From IMG/VR virus record IMGVR_UViG_3300042866_001263: a stretch of DNA of 64,000 bases. One strand, written 5' to 3'. Positions 9,151-32,080 of the stretch are shown here, piece after piece (the first letter of the stretch is position 1; each line of letters opens with the position of its first letter). Origin of the DNA: a virus (taxonomy: Duplodnaviria > Caudoviricetes). A program made the position numbers and the translations under genes. A model generated the notes under the pieces. It saw nothing but the letters and a program-made list of their open reading frames with translations. It was not told where the DNA came from and did no database searches.

Positions 9151-9413
9151 ACTCAGATCCACACGGCAATTGGTGCGTTTACTATTGTAAAAAAACTGAC
9201 ACTACTGCATGGAGCGTAATGAAATTACGACGTAGTGATGGTGTCATCGTATCAGCAAAAACTTATAATGATGCTTTTAAATTTGTCAAATATCAAGATG
9301 CATTTGATTTTGTTAGACAACTAATTACAGAAGAACCAGAACCAAAATATGATGCAACTGTAAAGAGAATTTGTCTTGCCAGAGAAGATGCTTTTTATCT
9401 TTCAGAAAATTAA
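9147..9413 (+). CDS. hypothetical protein
   Basis: Coupled ORF with ATGA overlap. Confidence 0.65.
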   Translation: MNSDPHGNWCVYYCKKTDTTAWSVMKLRRSDGVIVSAKTYNDAFKFVKYQDAFDFVRQLITEEPEPKYDATVKRICLAREDAFYLSEN

Positions 9414-9415
9414 AC

Positions 9416-9447
9416 TGTATTCAAATTTACAAAGTTTGTATTATAAT
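9416..9447 (+). promoter_or_regulatory. NtcA box (TGTA-N8-TACA) overlapping the -35 region of a sigma70 promoter
   Basis: TGTATTCAAATTTACA 9416-9431; TATAAT 9442-9447. Confidence 0.7.
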
Positions 9448-9455
9448 TAGATATA

Positions 9456-9678
9456 CGTTCATTCGCTATTTCCAAATAGCGAACGGAAGTAAGACAACTC
9501 GGAACGGGTCGTTCATCTATGGAGACACTCATTCTCACATGCTTACAAGCACACTTGATTGCTGGGAGAGTTAATAAACAAGACATTCCCAGGCAAGCAA
9601 AGAATGATTTGATATGGGAGATCAAACAGATATCTCCAAAGGAGTGTAAGATAGACGCAAAGGTTGACTGAAGGAACG
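9456..9678 (+). ncRNA. tandem glutamine-riboswitch-like aptamers (glnA / Downstream-peptide family)
   Basis: Two CGTTC...GAACG P1 helices (9456-9506, 9510-9678), GGAAGTAAG and GACTGAAGGAACG core motifs, P2 hairpins. Confidence 0.75.
9519..9671 (+). CDS. 50-aa ORF nested inside the second aptamer
   Basis: METLILTCLQAHLIAGRVNKQDIPRQAKNDLIWEIKQISPKECKIDAKVD. Confidence 0.55.
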   Translation: METLILTCLQAHLIAGRVNKQDIPRQAKNDLIWEIKQISPKECKIDAKVD

Positions 9679-9711
9679 CTCTTTAACCTAAACAACTAAG
9701 GAGAACCTCCC

Positions 9712-9861
9712 ATGTCACAAGCAACATATCGTGGTGTTCAATATGACACCGAAACAAAAAGAGAACAACTAGCAGCAAACTGGCTTCCAGTTATCCAAAA
9801 ACAAATTGAAAAACAGAATAAATTAAAAGAGGCACAACTTGCCATGGCGATGAAAATGTGA
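9712..9861 (+). CDS. DUF4278-like (YRG motif) peptide, 49 aa
   Basis: MSQATYRGVQYDT...; AAGGAG RBS at 9698-9703. Confidence 0.75.
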   Translation: MSQATYRGVQYDTETKREQLAANWLPVIQKQIEKQNKLKEAQLAMAMKM

Positions 9862-9873
9862 TATAATATATTT

Positions 9874-9915
9874 CCGTGTGAAGGAAGTGATGGGGAGGCG
9901 AAAGTCTCCCCTTTT
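9874..9915 (+). ncRNA. candidate ~42-nt sRNA ending in a terminator
   Basis: TTGCCA(9839)-17-TATAAT(9862); hairpin GGGGAGGC-GAAA-GTCTCCCC-TTTT 9892-9915. Confidence 0.45.
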
Positions 9916-9928
9916 ATTTTGATAAAAA

Positions 9929-10474
9929 ATGAATTTTATACATCATCTAAAAGAAGCCTATCCAAAATCATCTTGCGAAAAGATGATAGAAATATTTGAC
10001 CAGAACAGTCCTTTCGCTGTAAGAGGAACTGCTGGAAAAGAATACCTTGATGACTTAGAATTAACTTTAGAAATTACAGATGCAGATTGCTATTCTGGAC
10101 TGGGAACAGCAGTTTATAAAGCAGTTGATGAATATAAAATTGTGTATCCATTAATCAATACTCACATCTCAAACTGGAAAGTAAATCCATATTGTCAGCT
10201 GATGAGATATGAACCTAACAATTATTATAGTAGGATACATTGTGAGAATGATGGAACCCCAGAATTCTCGACAAGAGTTTTTGCTTGGATGATCTATTTG
10301 AATGACATCCGAGAGGGAGGAGGAACACATTTCGTTTATCAAAATTTTACAGCACAACCAGTAGCAGGAGATCTTTATATTTGGCCTGCTCACTGGACGC
10401 ACTTTCATCATGGAGTTAATGCTCCATATGAAAAAAAGTATATTATAACTGGTTGGGTTGATTATGTGTTATAA
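9929..10474 (+). CDS. 2OG-Fe(II) oxygenase
   Basis: HxE...RVFAWMIYLND...GGGTHF...HFHHG...KYIITGW. Confidence 0.9.
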   Translation: MNFIHHLKEAYPKSSCEKMIEIFDQNSPFAVRGTAGKEYLDDLELTLEITDADCYSGLGTAVYKAVDEYKIVYPLINTHISNWKVNPYCQLMRYEPNNYYSRIHCENDGTPEFSTRVFAWMIYLNDIREGGGTHFVYQNFTAQPVAGDLYIWPAHWTHFHHGVNAPYEKKYIITGWVDYVL

Positions 10475-10497
10475 TTAGTAGTGTATGTCATGCTACC

Positions 10498-28871: not shown

Positions 28872-28943
28872 GGGAGTGTCGCCTATGGGTTAAGGCCATC
28901 GCCTTATAAGCGGTAGAACTGGGTTCAAGTCCCAGCATTCCCA
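28872..28943 (+). tRNA. tRNA-Ile(TAT)
   Basis: Cloverleaf; anticodon TAT at 28905-28907. Confidence 0.85.
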
Positions 28944-28995
28944 TTAGTTAGAGCAGTCGTATAAATAGTATTGATCTAACTAACTAATTAAAAAA

Positions 28996-29373
28996 ATGAT
29001 TGGTAAGTGTGTAACCTGCGAAAAAGAGTTCAAGTATATGCCGTCACAATCGACAGGTAAATACTGCTCTCGCAAATGTCAGCAAGACAACCAAGATCGT
29101 AAATATATTACAGAATGGTTGAACGGCACAAAATCTGGTATAATAAGGGGTAACTCACTCTCTGGTTATGTTAGAAGGCATTTGCTAGAAGAAGCAGAAT
29201 ACAAGTGCTCTCAGTGTAGTTGGTCTGGTGTTAATCCAGTTTCTGGTAATACAACATTAGAAATTGACCACATCGATGGCAATAGAAAAAATGCCAGTAA
29301 AGACAATCTTAGAGTATTATGTCCTAACTGTCATTCGCTAACGCCCACTTATCGAGCATTAAACATCAAGTAG
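28996..29373 (+). mobile_element. free-standing HNH (homing) endonuclease gene inside the tRNA cluster
   Basis: CxxC...LEIDHIDG.R.N...NLRVLCPNCH; own TATAAATA at 28960. Confidence 0.88.
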
Positions 29374-29445
29374 CTCCTTTAGCAATCTGGCGAATGCACC
29401 GAACTCATAATTCGGCTAAGGTGGGTTCGATCCCCTCAAGGAGCA
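29373..29445 (+). tRNA. tRNA-Met(CAT), elongator-type (Ile2 not excluded)
   Basis: GCTCCTT/AAGGAGC acceptor stem; CTCATAA loop. Confidence 0.85.
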
Positions 29446-29450
29446 CCTAC

Positions 29451-29523
29451 GCCCGTGTAGTCCAGCGGAAGAGACAGAGGACTTAAAATCCTTCCAGGGT
29501 CGGTTCGAATCCGACCACGGGCA
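29451..29523 (+). tRNA. tRNA-Leu(TAA) with short variable loop
   Basis: GCCCGTG/CACGGGC acceptor stem; CTTAAAA loop. Confidence 0.85.
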
Positions 29524-29567
29524 TTCCTGTGTAAATAGTAACAGGAAATTTTGAGAGATCAAATGTA

Positions 29568-29849
29568 ATGACAACAATTAAGTACACCATCACTCGAAAG
29601 CATGTCTTTGTTGACAACGAACCAGTGTTGATGTATTATATTGAAAATATGCCATTCGCATTTGATCTTTTAGATCAAGATGAAAAACATGACAAATGGA
29701 TTTTGGCTGAAGCAGCACTAAATCAAGAATATACTATGGAAGATATCTTCCGTTATTCTGACTATCTTATCGCTGAAGAATGCCACCCAGTTTTGTTTGA
29801 ATTGCCCTTAGTTAATCCTGAAGTTTTGCCAGATGAACCAGTTTCTTGA
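29568..29849 (+). CDS. hypothetical protein
   Basis: 93-aa ORF after TAAATA at 29532. Confidence 0.7.
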   Translation: MTTIKYTITRKHVFVDNEPVLMYYIENMPFAFDLLDQDEKHDKWILAEAALNQEYTMEDIFRYSDYLIAEECHPVLFELPLVNPEVLPDEPVS

Positions 29850-30357
29850 ATACCTTGAAGGCACCTTTGCTAACAAACATCAAGCACAGTCTCATCCTAC
29901 TCGTTATGCTCACATTCGTGTAAGTCATCGTCGTATTGGTGAGAAACGGTTTTATGGTGAACAGGCATATAACTATCTTCTAAATAACCCATATCGTCAG
30001 TTTGTAATTGACGTTGAGGTTGAGAAGGGGCAATTTCGTCTCAAAAATTATGAGATTGAAGATCCTAAACGTTTTGCGGAATGTAAAGATCTCGAACTCA
30101 TTACGGACGACATCTTGACATATCGCCAGGGTTGCGATATAATTATTACACAGACTGGACCAGAAATGTTCCAGGGTGGTACATCTACTTGTGAGTGTTG
30201 GGTTGATTGGCAAGGCATAAAAACCTATGTTCAAAATGAAGTCACACTCACAAAAGATGAATACCATGTAGTTGATAAAGGACTACATGCTGAAACCCAC
30301 GAAAAGATTTGGGGTTCCGATTGGGGAGCGTTCAAATTTGTTAGAATGCCCTTGTAG
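29833..30357 (+). CDS. cpeT: T-type phycobiliprotein lyase (CpcT/CpeT family)
   Basis: LEGTFANKHQAQSHP..YAHI, EQAY, PYRQ, GCD, WGS..GAFKF. Confidence 0.85.
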   Translation: MNQFLEYLEGTFANKHQAQSHPTRYAHIRVSHRRIGEKRFYGEQAYNYLLNNPYRQFVIDVEVEKGQFRLKNYEIEDPKRFAECKDLELITDDILTYRQGCDIIITQTGPEMFQGGTSTCECWVDWQGIKTYVQNEVTLTKDEYHVVDKGLHAETHEKIWGSDWGAFKFVRMPL

Positions 30358-30419
30358 CTCAGTGGTAGAGCAGCGGTTTTGTAAACCGCTGGTCGTCTGT
30401 TCGAATCAGATCGGGGGCT
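30348..30419 (+). tRNA. tRNA-Thr(TGT)
   Basis: Cloverleaf; anticodon at 30380-30382. Confidence 0.9.
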
Positions 30420-30587
30420 CTTGAAAGGACTGGAAATATTCGGTTCTTTCTCGAAATCCTAAGTTTTCTTAGGTCGGGGATTTGATCACCCCCGCTCGTA
30501 GGAACCAAAACCTCTCCTTGGTCTTAGTATTCTGTGTCCAAGTGAAGTAAAGAGGGGGGCTTAAGGTGATGCTCCCCCCTCCTACCA
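30420..30587 (+). ncRNA. structured non-tRNA RNA between tRNA-Thr and tRNA-Ala
   Basis: Five or six helices identified by eye; ends in CCA. Confidence 0.5.
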
Positions 30588-30590
30588 TTA

Positions 30591-30663
30591 GGGGAATTAG
30601 CTCAGTTGGTAGAGCACCTGCTTTGCAAGCAGGCTGTCAGGAGTTCGAGTCTCCTATTCTCCA
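30591..30663 (+). tRNA. tRNA-Ala(TGC)
   Basis: GGGGAATTAGCTCAG...; anticodon at 30624-30626. Confidence 0.95.
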
Positions 30664-30682
30664 TGAGTTTACTATAACTCTT

Positions 30683-30838
30683 ATGTCTCTCATTTCAAAA
30701 CCTGACCGAGATCTCGCCATCGAGGCGCTAGATTTTTACCTTTTCAATAAACAGTATGACATCAGTGAAACAAAAAGAATGGAAATCAACGCCCTTCTTA
30801 ATTGGCTCAAACTGGAAAATTTCAAACATGAAAATTAA
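30683..30838 (+). CDS. hypothetical protein (51 aa)
   Basis: MSLISKPDRDLAIEAL...; start trimmed from the track ORF. Confidence 0.6.
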   Translation: MSLISKPDRDLAIEALDFYLFNKQYDISETKRMEINALLNWLKLENFKHEN

Positions 30839-30998
30839 TCTCTGGTATTGCGTTGAAATGAAGCAATGGCGCTGGTCTCTTACAGATGATCATCGTCCGA
30901 TTGTTCGCCAAGAAAGCGGACAACGACCACATCTACGTGATGCTATGAATGACATAGCAAATACTGTAGAATATATGATGGACAGTCAACAGTCCTGA
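30828..30998 (+). CDS. hypothetical protein (56 aa)
   Basis: MKINLWYCVEMKQWRW...; start trimmed. Confidence 0.6.
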   Translation: MKINLWYCVEMKQWRWSLTDDHRPIVRQESGQRPHLRDAMNDIANTVEYMMDSQQS

Positions 30999-31006
30999 TT
31001 TTTCAT

Positions 31007-31078
31007 TCCCCTATAGCTCAACGGCAGAGCAGAGAGCTGTTAACTCTAAGGTTCCTCGTTCGAATCGAGGTGGGGGAG
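31007..31078 (+). tRNA. tRNA-Asn(GTT)
   Basis: Cloverleaf; anticodon at 31039-31041. Confidence 0.9.
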
Positions 31079-31081
31079 TTT

Positions 31082-31163
31082 GGGTAGGTGTCCGAGTGGT
31101 TAATGGAAACGGACTGTAAATCCGTCGGCTCCGCCTTCGGGGGTTCGAATCCCTCCCTGCCCA
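31082..31163 (+). tRNA. tRNA-Tyr(GTA)
   Basis: Long variable arm; anticodon at 31116-31118. Confidence 0.92.
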
Positions 31164-31350
31164 TATAAATATACACACAATGGTGAACATCATGTCTAAC
31201 TTCAGCAAGCAAATTGAGATTAAGATTAGCGATTGCCGCCAGGATATCGCCAAATCCCTCCTGCTTGCTAATATGTAACAATCGATACATAAGCAAGATT
31301 TATCAGGGGGGCAGTTGACAAAACCGCCCCCCTATTTTATTGTAGATACA

Positions 31351-31385
31351 TCGGTGGGGGATCCACCACGGTGGGGGATCCACCA
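31351..31385. repeat. tandem 17/18-bp palindromic repeat
   Basis: CGGTGGGGGATCCACCA followed by CGGTGGGGGATCCCACCA. Confidence 0.85.
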
Positions 31386-31408
31386 GCACCTTGAAAATTT
31401 AATCTCAT

Positions 31409-31481
31409 GGGTCTGTAACTCAGTTGGTAGAGTAGCGGGCTTTTAACCTGTAAGTCGTCGGTTCGAGCCCGACCAGACCCA
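31409..31481 (+). tRNA. tRNA-Lys(TTT)
   Basis: Cloverleaf; anticodon at 31442-31444. Confidence 0.92.
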
Positions 31482-31484
31482 TTT

Positions 31485-31556
31485 GACCCTATAGTGAAGC
31501 GGTTATCACGCCACCCTGTCACGGTGGTATCACGAGTTCAAATCTCGTTAGGGTCG
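31485..31556 (+). tRNA. tRNA-Asp(GTC)
   Basis: Cloverleaf; anticodon at 31518-31520. Confidence 0.92.
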
Positions 31557-31604
31557 TTGCTACGCTGCCTGTGGAGTGCCCCTCTTTGGCGGTTGTAGCA
31601 TCAA

Positions 31605-31676
31605 GTTCCTATCGACTAGCGGTTAGGTCACCACCCTTTCAAGGTGGCAGCACGGGTTCGAATCCCGTTAGGAATA
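31605..31676 (+). tRNA. tRNA-Glu(TTC)
   Basis: Cloverleaf; anticodon at 31638-31640. Confidence 0.92.
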
Positions 31677-31680
31677 CTAT

Positions 31681-31752
31681 GGAACCGTAGCTCAGCGGTA
31701 GAGCACTCGGCTGATAACCGAGCGGTCACAAGTTCAAATCTTGTCGGTTCCA
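31681..31752 (+). tRNA. tRNA-Ile(GAT)
   Basis: Cloverleaf; anticodon at 31713-31715. Confidence 0.92.
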
Positions 31753-31756
31753 CCTT

Positions 31757-31843
31757 GGAAGATTGGCTGAGAGGTCTAAAGCAACGGTTTGCTAAACCGT
31801 CGAAGGATTAATCCTTCCGTTGGTTCGAATCCAACATCTTCCG
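31757..31843 (+). tRNA. tRNA-Ser(GCT)
   Basis: Long variable arm; anticodon at 31791-31793. Confidence 0.92.
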
Positions 31844-31845
31844 TA

Positions 31846-31926
31846 GGACTCCAGCAATGTGCTTGCTAGGATATAAAAGACTGACGCCTCCCTCTGCAGA
31901 AAGAGTAACCATCAGGTCAGCGTCCA
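31846..31926 (+). ncRNA. structured ~80-nt spacer RNA between tRNA-Ser and tRNA-Gln
   Basis: GGAC/GTCC closing helix, two internal arms, ends GTCCA. Confidence 0.45.
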
Positions 31927-31931
31927 TGTAA

Positions 31932-32003
31932 TCTGAGGTCGCCAAGTGGTAAGGCAGCGGGTTTTGGTCCCGCTATTCGTGGGTTCGAATCCTACTCTCA
32001 GAA
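31932..32003 (+). tRNA. tRNA-Gln(TTG)
   Basis: Cloverleaf; anticodon at 31964-31966. Confidence 0.9.
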
Positions 32004-32006
32004 CCT

Positions 32007-32080
32007 ACTCTCTTAGCTCAGTGGATTAGAGCACTTGACTACGGATCAAGGTGTCGTAGGTTCAAATCCTACAGAGAGTG
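32007..32080 (+). tRNA. tRNA-Arg(ACG)
   Basis: Cloverleaf; anticodon at 32041-32043. Confidence 0.9.

Follow-up and report, generated by a model that had tools for sequence, protein, structure and literature searches.

A stretch of viral DNA of 64,000 nucleotides (nt) (Caudoviricetes; IMG/VR record IMGVR_UViG_3300042866_001263; the whole stretch is referred to here as the window) probably contains a cassette of small genes, responsive to nitrogen, from a T4-like freshwater cyanophage (Kyanoviridae), in which a promoter with an NtcA-type box precedes a coupled, two-core glutamine sensor, one small gene (open reading frame A, ORF A) is nested within the sensor, a second (ORF B) lies downstream, and glutamine selects the output. 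The comparison of related phages shows that the P2 arm of the second riboswitch core closes around a real gene of 50 codons, ORF A. A first-pass annotation of the region had listed an NtcA box, a -10 box, a glutamine aptamer, a ribosome-binding site (RBS), a YRG peptide and a terminator, and all six are present. It had also described a single peptide output, and in doing so it overlooked the gene enclosed by the second aptamer and the coupling of the cores; the cassette has two predicted protein outputs. In the sequence from 9200 to 10100 the order is upstream stop, box, TATAAT, aptamer, ORF A, AAGGAG, ORF B, terminator, as follows:

9411–9413: stop codon of the upstream gene (88 amino acids, aa), read from the sequence
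9416–9431, plus strand: NtcA-type box TGTA-N8-TACA (core GTA-N8-TAC at 9417–9430), an exact match that is kept in relatives
9442–9447, plus strand: -10 hexamer TATAAT, from a promoter scan, with a predicted start at ~9454
9454–9510, plus strand: glutamine riboswitch core 1, matched by RF01739
9510–9520, plus strand: 5' half of core 2, from alignment with compact forms and covariation with 9651–9655
9519–9671, plus strand: ORF A, 50 codons, nested in the P2 arm of core 2, from its open frame and protein-level conservation
9651–9678, plus strand: 3' half of core 2, from its sequence and the covariation of P2 and P3
9679–9703, plus strand: putative expression platform, CUCUUU (9679–9684) and AAGGAG (9698–9703), from the minimum free energy (MFE) hairpin
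9712–9861, plus strand: ORF B, a YRG peptide of 49 aa, from the list of open reading frames
9892–9911, plus strand: hairpin of the intrinsic terminator, with a T run to 9921, from a terminator scan

In naming the parts of the sensor we follow the type I glutamine riboswitch, where P1 denotes the CGUUC:GAACG helix, P2 the hairpin following CGUUCA, and P3 the third helix. Glutamine contacts and stabilizes the CGUUC:GAACG helix, the P2 loop of the aptamer is replaceable, and an aptamer made of two pieces still binds glutamine (PMC6698751). As expected of type I, the window has two CGUUC strands (9456 and 9510) and two GAACG strands (9502 and 9674), and all four are invariant in 167 units. Core 1 is matched by RF01739 at 9454–9510 with 34.4 bits (gathering score 35; E = 1.3e-5 in a 701-nt search), and the homologous cores of six isolated phages score 28.9–35.6 bits, two of them above 35. 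It is composed of CGUUC (9456–9460), a compact P2 hairpin (9462–9483), the junction CGGAAGUAAGA (9484–9494), the P3 5' strand CAACU (9495–9499), and GAACG (9502–9506). Core 2 is divided. Its 5' half contains CGUUC (9510–9514), A9515, and the P2 5' strand UCUAU (9516–9520), whose final A and U are the first two bases of the ORF A start codon, and its 3' half (9651–9678) reads AUAGA-CGCAAA-GGUUGACU-GAAGGAACG, made up of AUAGA (9651–9655), CGCAAA (9656–9661), GGUUG (9662–9666), ACU, GAAG, and GAACG (9674–9678). The compact homologues in the phages S-CREM1 and P-TIM68 align with both halves. In both cores a P2 hairpin directly follows CGUUCA, as type I demands, compact and local in core 1 and, with compensatory changes, closing across ORF A in core 2. 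The first-pass annotation's two glutamine-aptamer-like units are therefore both real, the first as an RF01739 match, but the second is split into halves ~130 nt apart. Its mention of a Downstream-peptide (Glutamine-II, RF01704) riboswitch was not borne out: RF01704 matched nothing in the window at a threshold as loose as E = 10, and its best match in relatives reached 28.8 bits against a gathering score of 33.

The split form of core 2 recurs among relatives. Two compact aptamer units adjoin each other in P-TIM68 and S-CREM1; unit 1 is likewise compact in the window, DSL-LC02, DSL-LC03, S-SRM01, and P-SSM7, but there 140–170 nt separate the second CGUUCA from its 3' block. We scanned IMG/VR with the 3' block of core 2 as a pattern (ACGCAAA-NNNN-GACU-GAAGGAACG) and obtained at least 120 loci; 110 unique units derive from the matches listed. 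In these listed loci the distance from CGUUCA to the block falls into two clean classes, 15–21 nt and 142–199 nt, and core 2 is split in 79 of the 110 units. The layout of the window, core 1 compact and core 2 split, occurs in 56; both cores are compact in 17, only core 1 is split in 14, and both are split in 23. Cellular records with the aptamer block number only six, all of them contigs of metagenome-assembled genomes or single cells, and one is the same contig that IMG/VR lists as viral. Because these loci were fetched by their 3' block, its conservation among them is uninformative, and further loci were fetched by the core 1 block alone. Among 50 new loci obtained in this way, 49 have CGUUCA directly after core 1 and 45 have the 3' block of core 2 (19 split, 26 compact), and the non-coding RAAGGAACG is intact in all 45.

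Within the split units, we found that ORF A behaves as a real coding gene at the level of sequence. Of 78 split loci, 75 keep the frame open, from an ATG 9–11 nt after the start of CGUUCA to a TGA in the block, and the products of 49–66 aa differ in length by whole codons. Pairwise differences among 22 unique 50-codon versions amount to 2667, 1429, and 4288 at the first, second, and third codon positions, and neither alternative frame is open in any of the 22. C8, C43, D46, A47, and D50 are invariant in an alignment of 79 versions (16–94% identity to that of the window). An AlphaFold2 model contains helices at residues 2–20 and 25–38 followed by a tail, with a mean predicted local distance difference test (pLDDT) score of 84.7. 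A profile search retrieved 967 homologous clusters, none with a Pfam domain; Pfam searches with the 79 members gave scattered chance matches only, the ESM Atlas yielded no usable look-alikes, and a Foldseek comparison of the model with the PDB was uninformative (best E = 3.6). The family did not turn up in 400 other genomes searched in the phylum of a Prochlorococcus anchor genome. These data bear on the alternative that ORF A is untranslated, its 130 nt being a structured RNA spacer that is open by chance. No Shine-Dalgarno sequence lies 5–9 nt from the ORF A AUG, which favors such a spacer, and the fold of the 173-nt segment, no better than that of shuffled sequences (z = -1.1), speaks neither for nor against it. 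The frame has nevertheless stayed open despite the divergence of the loci, with length changes in whole codons, a bias of differences toward the third codon position, two invariant cysteines, closed alternative frames, and a confident two-helix model, and we find a chance open frame scarcely credible.

The P2 arm of core 2 closes around this gene. In the 79 unique split units, the two strands of P2 are paired across ORF A in 79, 79, 79, 77, and 78 units at positions 1–5, and positions 3–5 each use three or four pair types (for example UCUAU/AUAGA, UCCUUA/UAAGGA, UCCCA/UGGGA, and UCCUCA/UGAGGA). The contiguous stem has a mean of 6.7 pairs, compared with 4.1 (standard deviation 0.2) after shuffling of partners between loci. 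The ORF A AUG has its first base within the stem in 76 of the 79 units, and the last codons of ORF A and its UGA stop constitute the P3 strand and junction of the aptamer, in the 3' half of core 2. The UGA belongs to the aptamer consensus, since 30 of 31 compact units have T-G-A there as well. An alternative is that core 2 is a relic, in which an inserted gene destroyed the aptamer, the motifs persist as coding sequence, core 1 alone senses glutamine, and ORFs A and B are ordinary consecutive genes. Consistent with a relic, core 2 goes undetected by any Rfam model, and the conservation of DAKxD at the ORF A C-terminus could reflect constraints on the protein. Such conservation would leave aside a stem that covaries across 140–200 nt, the RAAGGAACG kept beyond the stop codon in the independently fetched loci, a P3 strand inside ORF A that covaries with core 1 (see below), and the UGA shared with compact aptamers; we regard a relic as very improbable.

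A gene within a P2 arm is not confined to core 2. Where core 1 itself has a long P2 arm, as it does in 37 unique units (loci such as L020, L024, and L013), the arm always holds an ORF of 61–73 aa built along similar lines, with its stem preserved. In one subgroup of these core 1 ORFs (MTKALLLLAWVPLLS...) the N-terminus resembles a signal peptide. Some core 1 ORFs end within the core (GRK, then UAA), and others stop 2–14 nt before it. The core 2 ORF of locus L092 is homologous to the core 1 ORF of L013; ORFs have thus moved between cores. In core 2 of S-SRM01, GACGGAAGG stands in place of GACUGAAGG, so that the nested ORF continues to a UAA in CUCUUUAAC and has 55 aa, as annotated in the record.

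The type I consensus combines the junction ACGGAAGUA with a local P3 hairpin before GAAGGAACG. Core 1 has CGGAAGUA and lacks both a local P3 and GAAG; core 2 has GAAGGAACG but only CGCAAA at the junction, and lacks AAGUA and a local P3. The two cores instead appear to share a helix, formed in the window by CAACU (9495–9499) and GGUUG (9662–9666), that takes the place of the P3 each lacks locally. At its first position, the nucleotide immediately 5' of CGGAACG in core 1 meets the one immediately 3' of CGCAAA in core 2, and the two are Watson-Crick partners in 106 of 108 unique units (U-A in 78, A-U in 23, G-C in 5, with U-G in the other 2), compared with a mean of 63 and a maximum of 79 after permutation. 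The next four positions are C-G in 108; A.C in 72 or A-U in 30; G-C in 76, G-U in 21, and A-U in 5; and C-G in 102. A register shift of one or two bases abolished the pairing. A P3 common to both cores implies that they fold as one coupled structure and not as independent units in tandem. The fold can be read in two ways. In a nested reading, which is free of knots, an outer type I core pairs CGUUC 9456 with GAACG 9674, an inner permuted core pairs GAACG 9502 with CGUUC 9510, and P3 is common to both; in the other, P3 is formed between two units in series. In either, ORF A (9519–9671) contains the 3' strands of P2 and P3. Natural variants that would separate series from nested P1 pairing were sought, and the apparent ones proved to be artifacts of a loose pattern.

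Downstream of the sensor, ORF B is preceded by the RBS AAGGAG (9698–9703), 8 nt before its ATG at 9712. It has a single YRG, within TYRG at residues 5–8, and joins an N-terminal YRG module to a helix module (NWL...AQLAMAM), matching phrog_5049 over residues 1–19 and phrog_545 over residues 23–45. The first-pass assignment to the YRG/DUF4278 peptides holds for its family better than for the peptide itself: ORF B matches DUF4278 (PF14105) over residues 3–15 only, with 14.4 bits (E = 0.05) and thus below the 25.3-bit cut-off, but 96 of 102 positional homologues match it at E ≤ 0.01. On this sequence evidence, ORF B is a divergent single-YRG fusion. In DSL-LC02 and DSL-LC03 the helix module (NWL..I..QI.K...L..AQ) forms a small ORF of its own after the YRG gene, and in two other loci (L065 and L082) it is N-terminal to two YRG motifs; judged by such arrangements, the modules of YRG-type peptides are shuffled among phages. 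The inactivating factors IF7 and IF17 have a C-terminal Arg-rich region that binds glutamine synthetase (GS); ORF B has no such region, and its C-terminal half is the phrog_545 helix. DUF4278 is the N-terminal part of IF17 and has been reported to be dispensable for GS inactivation, so a GS target is unsupported here, and GS as the target of ORF B is conjecture.

The segment between core 2 and ORF B offers a candidate expression platform, in which CUCUUU (9679–9684) can pair with AAGGAG (9698–9703) in an MFE hairpin of -7.8 kcal/mol. The same CUCUUU leader is found in phages with compact aptamers, such as S-CREM1. A 10-bp pairing of 9612–9621 with the start of ORF B, seen in the MFE structure of the whole leader, was dropped, as most relatives differ in sequence at the ORF B start. 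Transcription would end at the terminator, which is of the intrinsic type, with a GC-rich stem of 8 bp (6 of 8 pairs G-C), a 4-nt loop, and a T run.

Upstream of the sensor, the NtcA-type box begins 3 nt past the stop of the preceding gene. The window contains 17 GTA-N8-TAC boxes where 10.9 are expected, so a single box is weak evidence, and its significance comes from conservation in relatives. A box lies 30–75 nt upstream of core 1 in 83 of the 110 unique upstream regions (14–80 nt in 90), compared with a mean of 2.2 and a maximum of 8 in shuffled regions, which bears out the box proposed at first pass. Its flanks keep TGTA/TACA while N8 varies, and TAwATA follows 13 nt after it in relatives; in the window, TATAAT follows after 11 nt. 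A conserved palindromic box at a fixed distance from a -10 element is, in sequence terms, what an NtcA promoter would present. The predicted start at ~9454, derived from the -10 box only, places the center of the box at ~-30.5. This is the geometry of the NtcA-repressed gifA promoter: repressing sites have been reported at -30.5 in gifA and -7.5 in gifB, and at -28.5 in Anabaena gifA (PMC6316151). In the window the aptamer comes immediately next, which puts it in the minority, as most relatives have an extra palindrome of ~20 nt holding TATAAT. In 20 relatives (for example L008, L026, L034, L098, L112, and L123) a second perfect NtcA-type palindrome, GTATGCTAACATAC, overlies a -10-like TAACAT ~19 nt upstream of core 1; others have at this position different palindromes of 14–16 nt that contain TATAAT, and the window has no such element. 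These second palindromes could be an operator or a 5' hairpin.

The same architecture could also be activated by NtcA. High 2-oxoglutarate, as under nitrogen stress or late in infection, would then turn the cassette on, and the riboswitch would pick ORF A at low glutamine or ORF B as glutamine recovers. The many NtcA boxes in cyanophage genomes have been read as activating promoters that exploit the nitrogen-stress response of the host (Sullivan et al., 2010; PMC3037559), the box of most relatives is upstream of TTGACT-17-TATAAT, about one helical turn beyond the -41.5 activator position, and activation would supply a condition in which ORF A, as the low-glutamine product, is transcribed. It fits the window less well, where the gap between box and TATAAT is only 11 nt and the 22-nt activator spacing is impossible unless the start is inside the aptamer; the repressing sites at gifA and the second perfect box over a -10-like element in 20 relatives are further points against activation, which we consider somewhat unlikely.

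Taking the promoter as NtcA-repressed, we can tentatively put forward a translation-gated toggle, in which a ribosome-occupied ORF A prevents the sensor from folding, a glutamine-locked sensor prevents ORF A initiation, and one mRNA flips between ORF A and the YRG peptide, with NtcA as a second input. Ribosomes on ORF A would have to unwind P2 and the shared P3, so that translation of ORF A and the folded sensor would be mutually exclusive. Initiation by a 30S subunit at AUG 9519 would require that P2 and strands of both P1 helices be single-stranded, and glutamine, by stabilizing the CGUUC:GAACG helices, would bury this start. The folded sensor would permit ORF B translation, by analogy with the ON-switch leaders of gifB and of Prochlorococcus MED4; both host classes of glutamine riboswitch are ON switches (PMC6212724, PMC6698751). 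NtcA, centered at ~-30.5 as at gifA, would shut the promoter at high 2-oxoglutarate. In sum, glutamine would set which of two small proteins is made, and transcription would take place mainly in nitrogen-replete hosts.

Several observations weigh against this interpretation. Core 1 falls 0.6 bits below the RF01739 gathering score, a whole-window Rfam scan at the gathering threshold returned tRNAs only and no riboswitch, and core 2 was matched by no Rfam model in the search of the region or of 9500–9720 alone. Covariation does not distinguish the nested fold from the series fold, because the four P1 strands are invariant. The CUCUUU:AAGGAG hairpin is insignificant (z = -1.2), and a search for covariation between anti-Shine-Dalgarno and Shine-Dalgarno gave no support, as only a clade of freshwater and estuarine phages has the CUCUUU leader, and the leaders of marine phages show no clear compensation for their differences. 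The TTGACT-17-TATAAT of most relatives would, as a second promoter-like element, put the box at ~-51 and not at -30. If NtcA represses at low glutamine, ORF A, the low-glutamine output, would rarely be transcribed, which strains the toggle. Finally, termination at the ORF A stop would place a ribosome over CUCUUU, and this could turn ORF B on instead of off.

This last point leads to an alternative based on translational coupling, in which ribosomes that end at UGA 9669–9671 cover CUCUUU and free the ORF B Shine-Dalgarno sequence, both ORFs are on when the sensor is open, and glutamine turns both off. The spacing is suitable, with the ORF A stop 8 nt before the anti-Shine-Dalgarno sequence and 41 nt before the ORF B AUG, and the burial of the ORF A AUG in P2 in 76 of 79 units means that the folded state should block ORF A. 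Compact phages of the S-CREM1 type, however, have the same platform and no ORF A, so ORF B expression cannot generally depend on ORF A translation, and host glutamine riboswitches before DUF4278 genes are ON switches. Coupling of this kind is unlikely in our estimate.

The reading of the locus as a glutamine-selected, two-output cassette can be set against known systems. In Synechocystis sp. PCC 6803, a type I glutamine riboswitch in the 5' untranslated region of gifB acts as an ON switch, and the product, IF17, contains DUF4278 (PMC6212724, PMC6316151). Like the phage unit, gifA/gifB combine an NtcA box in the core promoter, a type I riboswitch, and DUF4278 downstream. The gifB aptamer, in contrast, is single and compact with no gene inside, and IF17 has a C-terminal GS-binding part that the phage peptide lacks; the phage has two cores with a common helix and two small protein outputs. 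Prochlorococcus MED4 has an NtcA site at a DUF4278 gene (Klähn et al., PMC6212724), and its PMM1846/Yfr6 locus, a glutamine-II riboswitch before a short DUF4278 "IF17-like" protein, resembles the phage in placing a YRG peptide behind a glutamine sensor and in the NtcA consensus of the promoter. The CGUUCA-hairpin-ACGCA of phage core 2 matches the 5' part of glutamine-II; the MED4 RNA differs in being an H-type pseudoknot with its own P2, and no nested ORF has been reported for it. The host-style order proposed at first pass, NtcA site, glutamine riboswitch, and DUF4278 gene, thus recurs in the gifB and PMM1846 leaders, and the comparison supports a host-like cassette; the proposed gate of low 2-oxoglutarate and high glutamine would follow by analogy only.

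Tandem glnA RNAs were noted by Weinberg (2010), and in S-CREM1 a 99-nt feature annotated as "glnA" occupies the homologous position, ahead of a peptide that closely resembles ORF B. The tandem and cyanophage glnA RNAs are treated in published notes as compact tandem units, unlike the window, where the cores have a common covarying helix and ORFs occupy P2 arms. Closest to the split core is the two-piece glutamine-II construct of Huang et al. (2019), in which an interrupted aptamer assembles on the ligand and the loop after CGUUCA is replaceable; that construct was made in vitro with the cut in a linker, whereas the phage has a natural interruption in the hairpin loop, by a gene predicted to be translated.

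Leader ORFs that lie in a ligand-sensing leader, and whose translation alters the RNA structure formed, occur in Salmonella mgtA and mgtCBR (mgtL, mgtM, and mgtP). The products of those ORFs are short sensor peptides, important in sequence only because they make the ribosome pause; ORF A belongs instead to a family of 50–66 aa proteins that is conserved at the protein level in ~970 clusters. Glutamine riboswitches in T4-like cyanophages, tandem glnA RNAs, cyanophage NtcA boxes, and the host unit of NtcA, riboswitch, and DUF4278 are already known. In the searchable literature we found no description of genes nested in P2 arms, of a helix common to both cores, or of a conserved NtcA box at the phage cassette.

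Riboswitches are usually described as compact aptamers in untranslated leaders, and here a protein-coding gene lies in the aptamer helices and two cores have a common stem. Standard Rfam scans overlook half of this layout, which hundreds of cyanophage sequences have kept. If the toggle is correct, it would represent a new class of riboswitch expression platform, with a protein-coding gene as a structural part of the aptamer, and a testable system for wiring translation and ligand sensing into one RNA. Cyanophages would carry both nitrogen-sensing layers of the host, 2-oxoglutarate through NtcA and glutamine through RNA, which bears on the nutrient tuning of infection in lakes and oceans, and two abundant families of small phage proteins are predicted to be expressed in a nitrogen-dependent manner.

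The region of the window that carries the cassette is 60–80% identical to deposited phages, with no close relative among them, and aligns with Kyanoviridae myoviruses of Synechococcus and Prochlorococcus. In a search of sequencing runs, lake-water metagenomes were found to contain window DNA. Two RNA libraries contained only 4–6% of the window's words, and their contigs, 85–95% alike and covering ~9505–9734, come from relatives; they are uninformative on transcription, strand, or ends. Contigs of one lake metagenome (DNA run X6) join 9482 to 9655 and 9529 to 9651, bypassing ORF A; they most likely stem from co-occurring compact-core relatives, or from cross-matching of the two cores, which are similar.

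Beyond the cassette, the next gene (9929–10474) encodes a 2OG-Fe(II) oxygenase, and a second GTA-N8-TAC box (GTATGTCATGCTAC) lies at 10483–10496, after its stop (10474) and ahead of the following ATG (10498). In the segment 9839–9915, the 3' end of ORF B contains a promoter close to consensus, TTGCCA-17-TATAAT preceded by a TG (11 of 12 matches); the RNA predicted from it would be ~40 nt long and end at the cassette terminator. Farther along the plus strand, Rfam models identify a cluster of at least 14 tRNA genes at 28872–32080.

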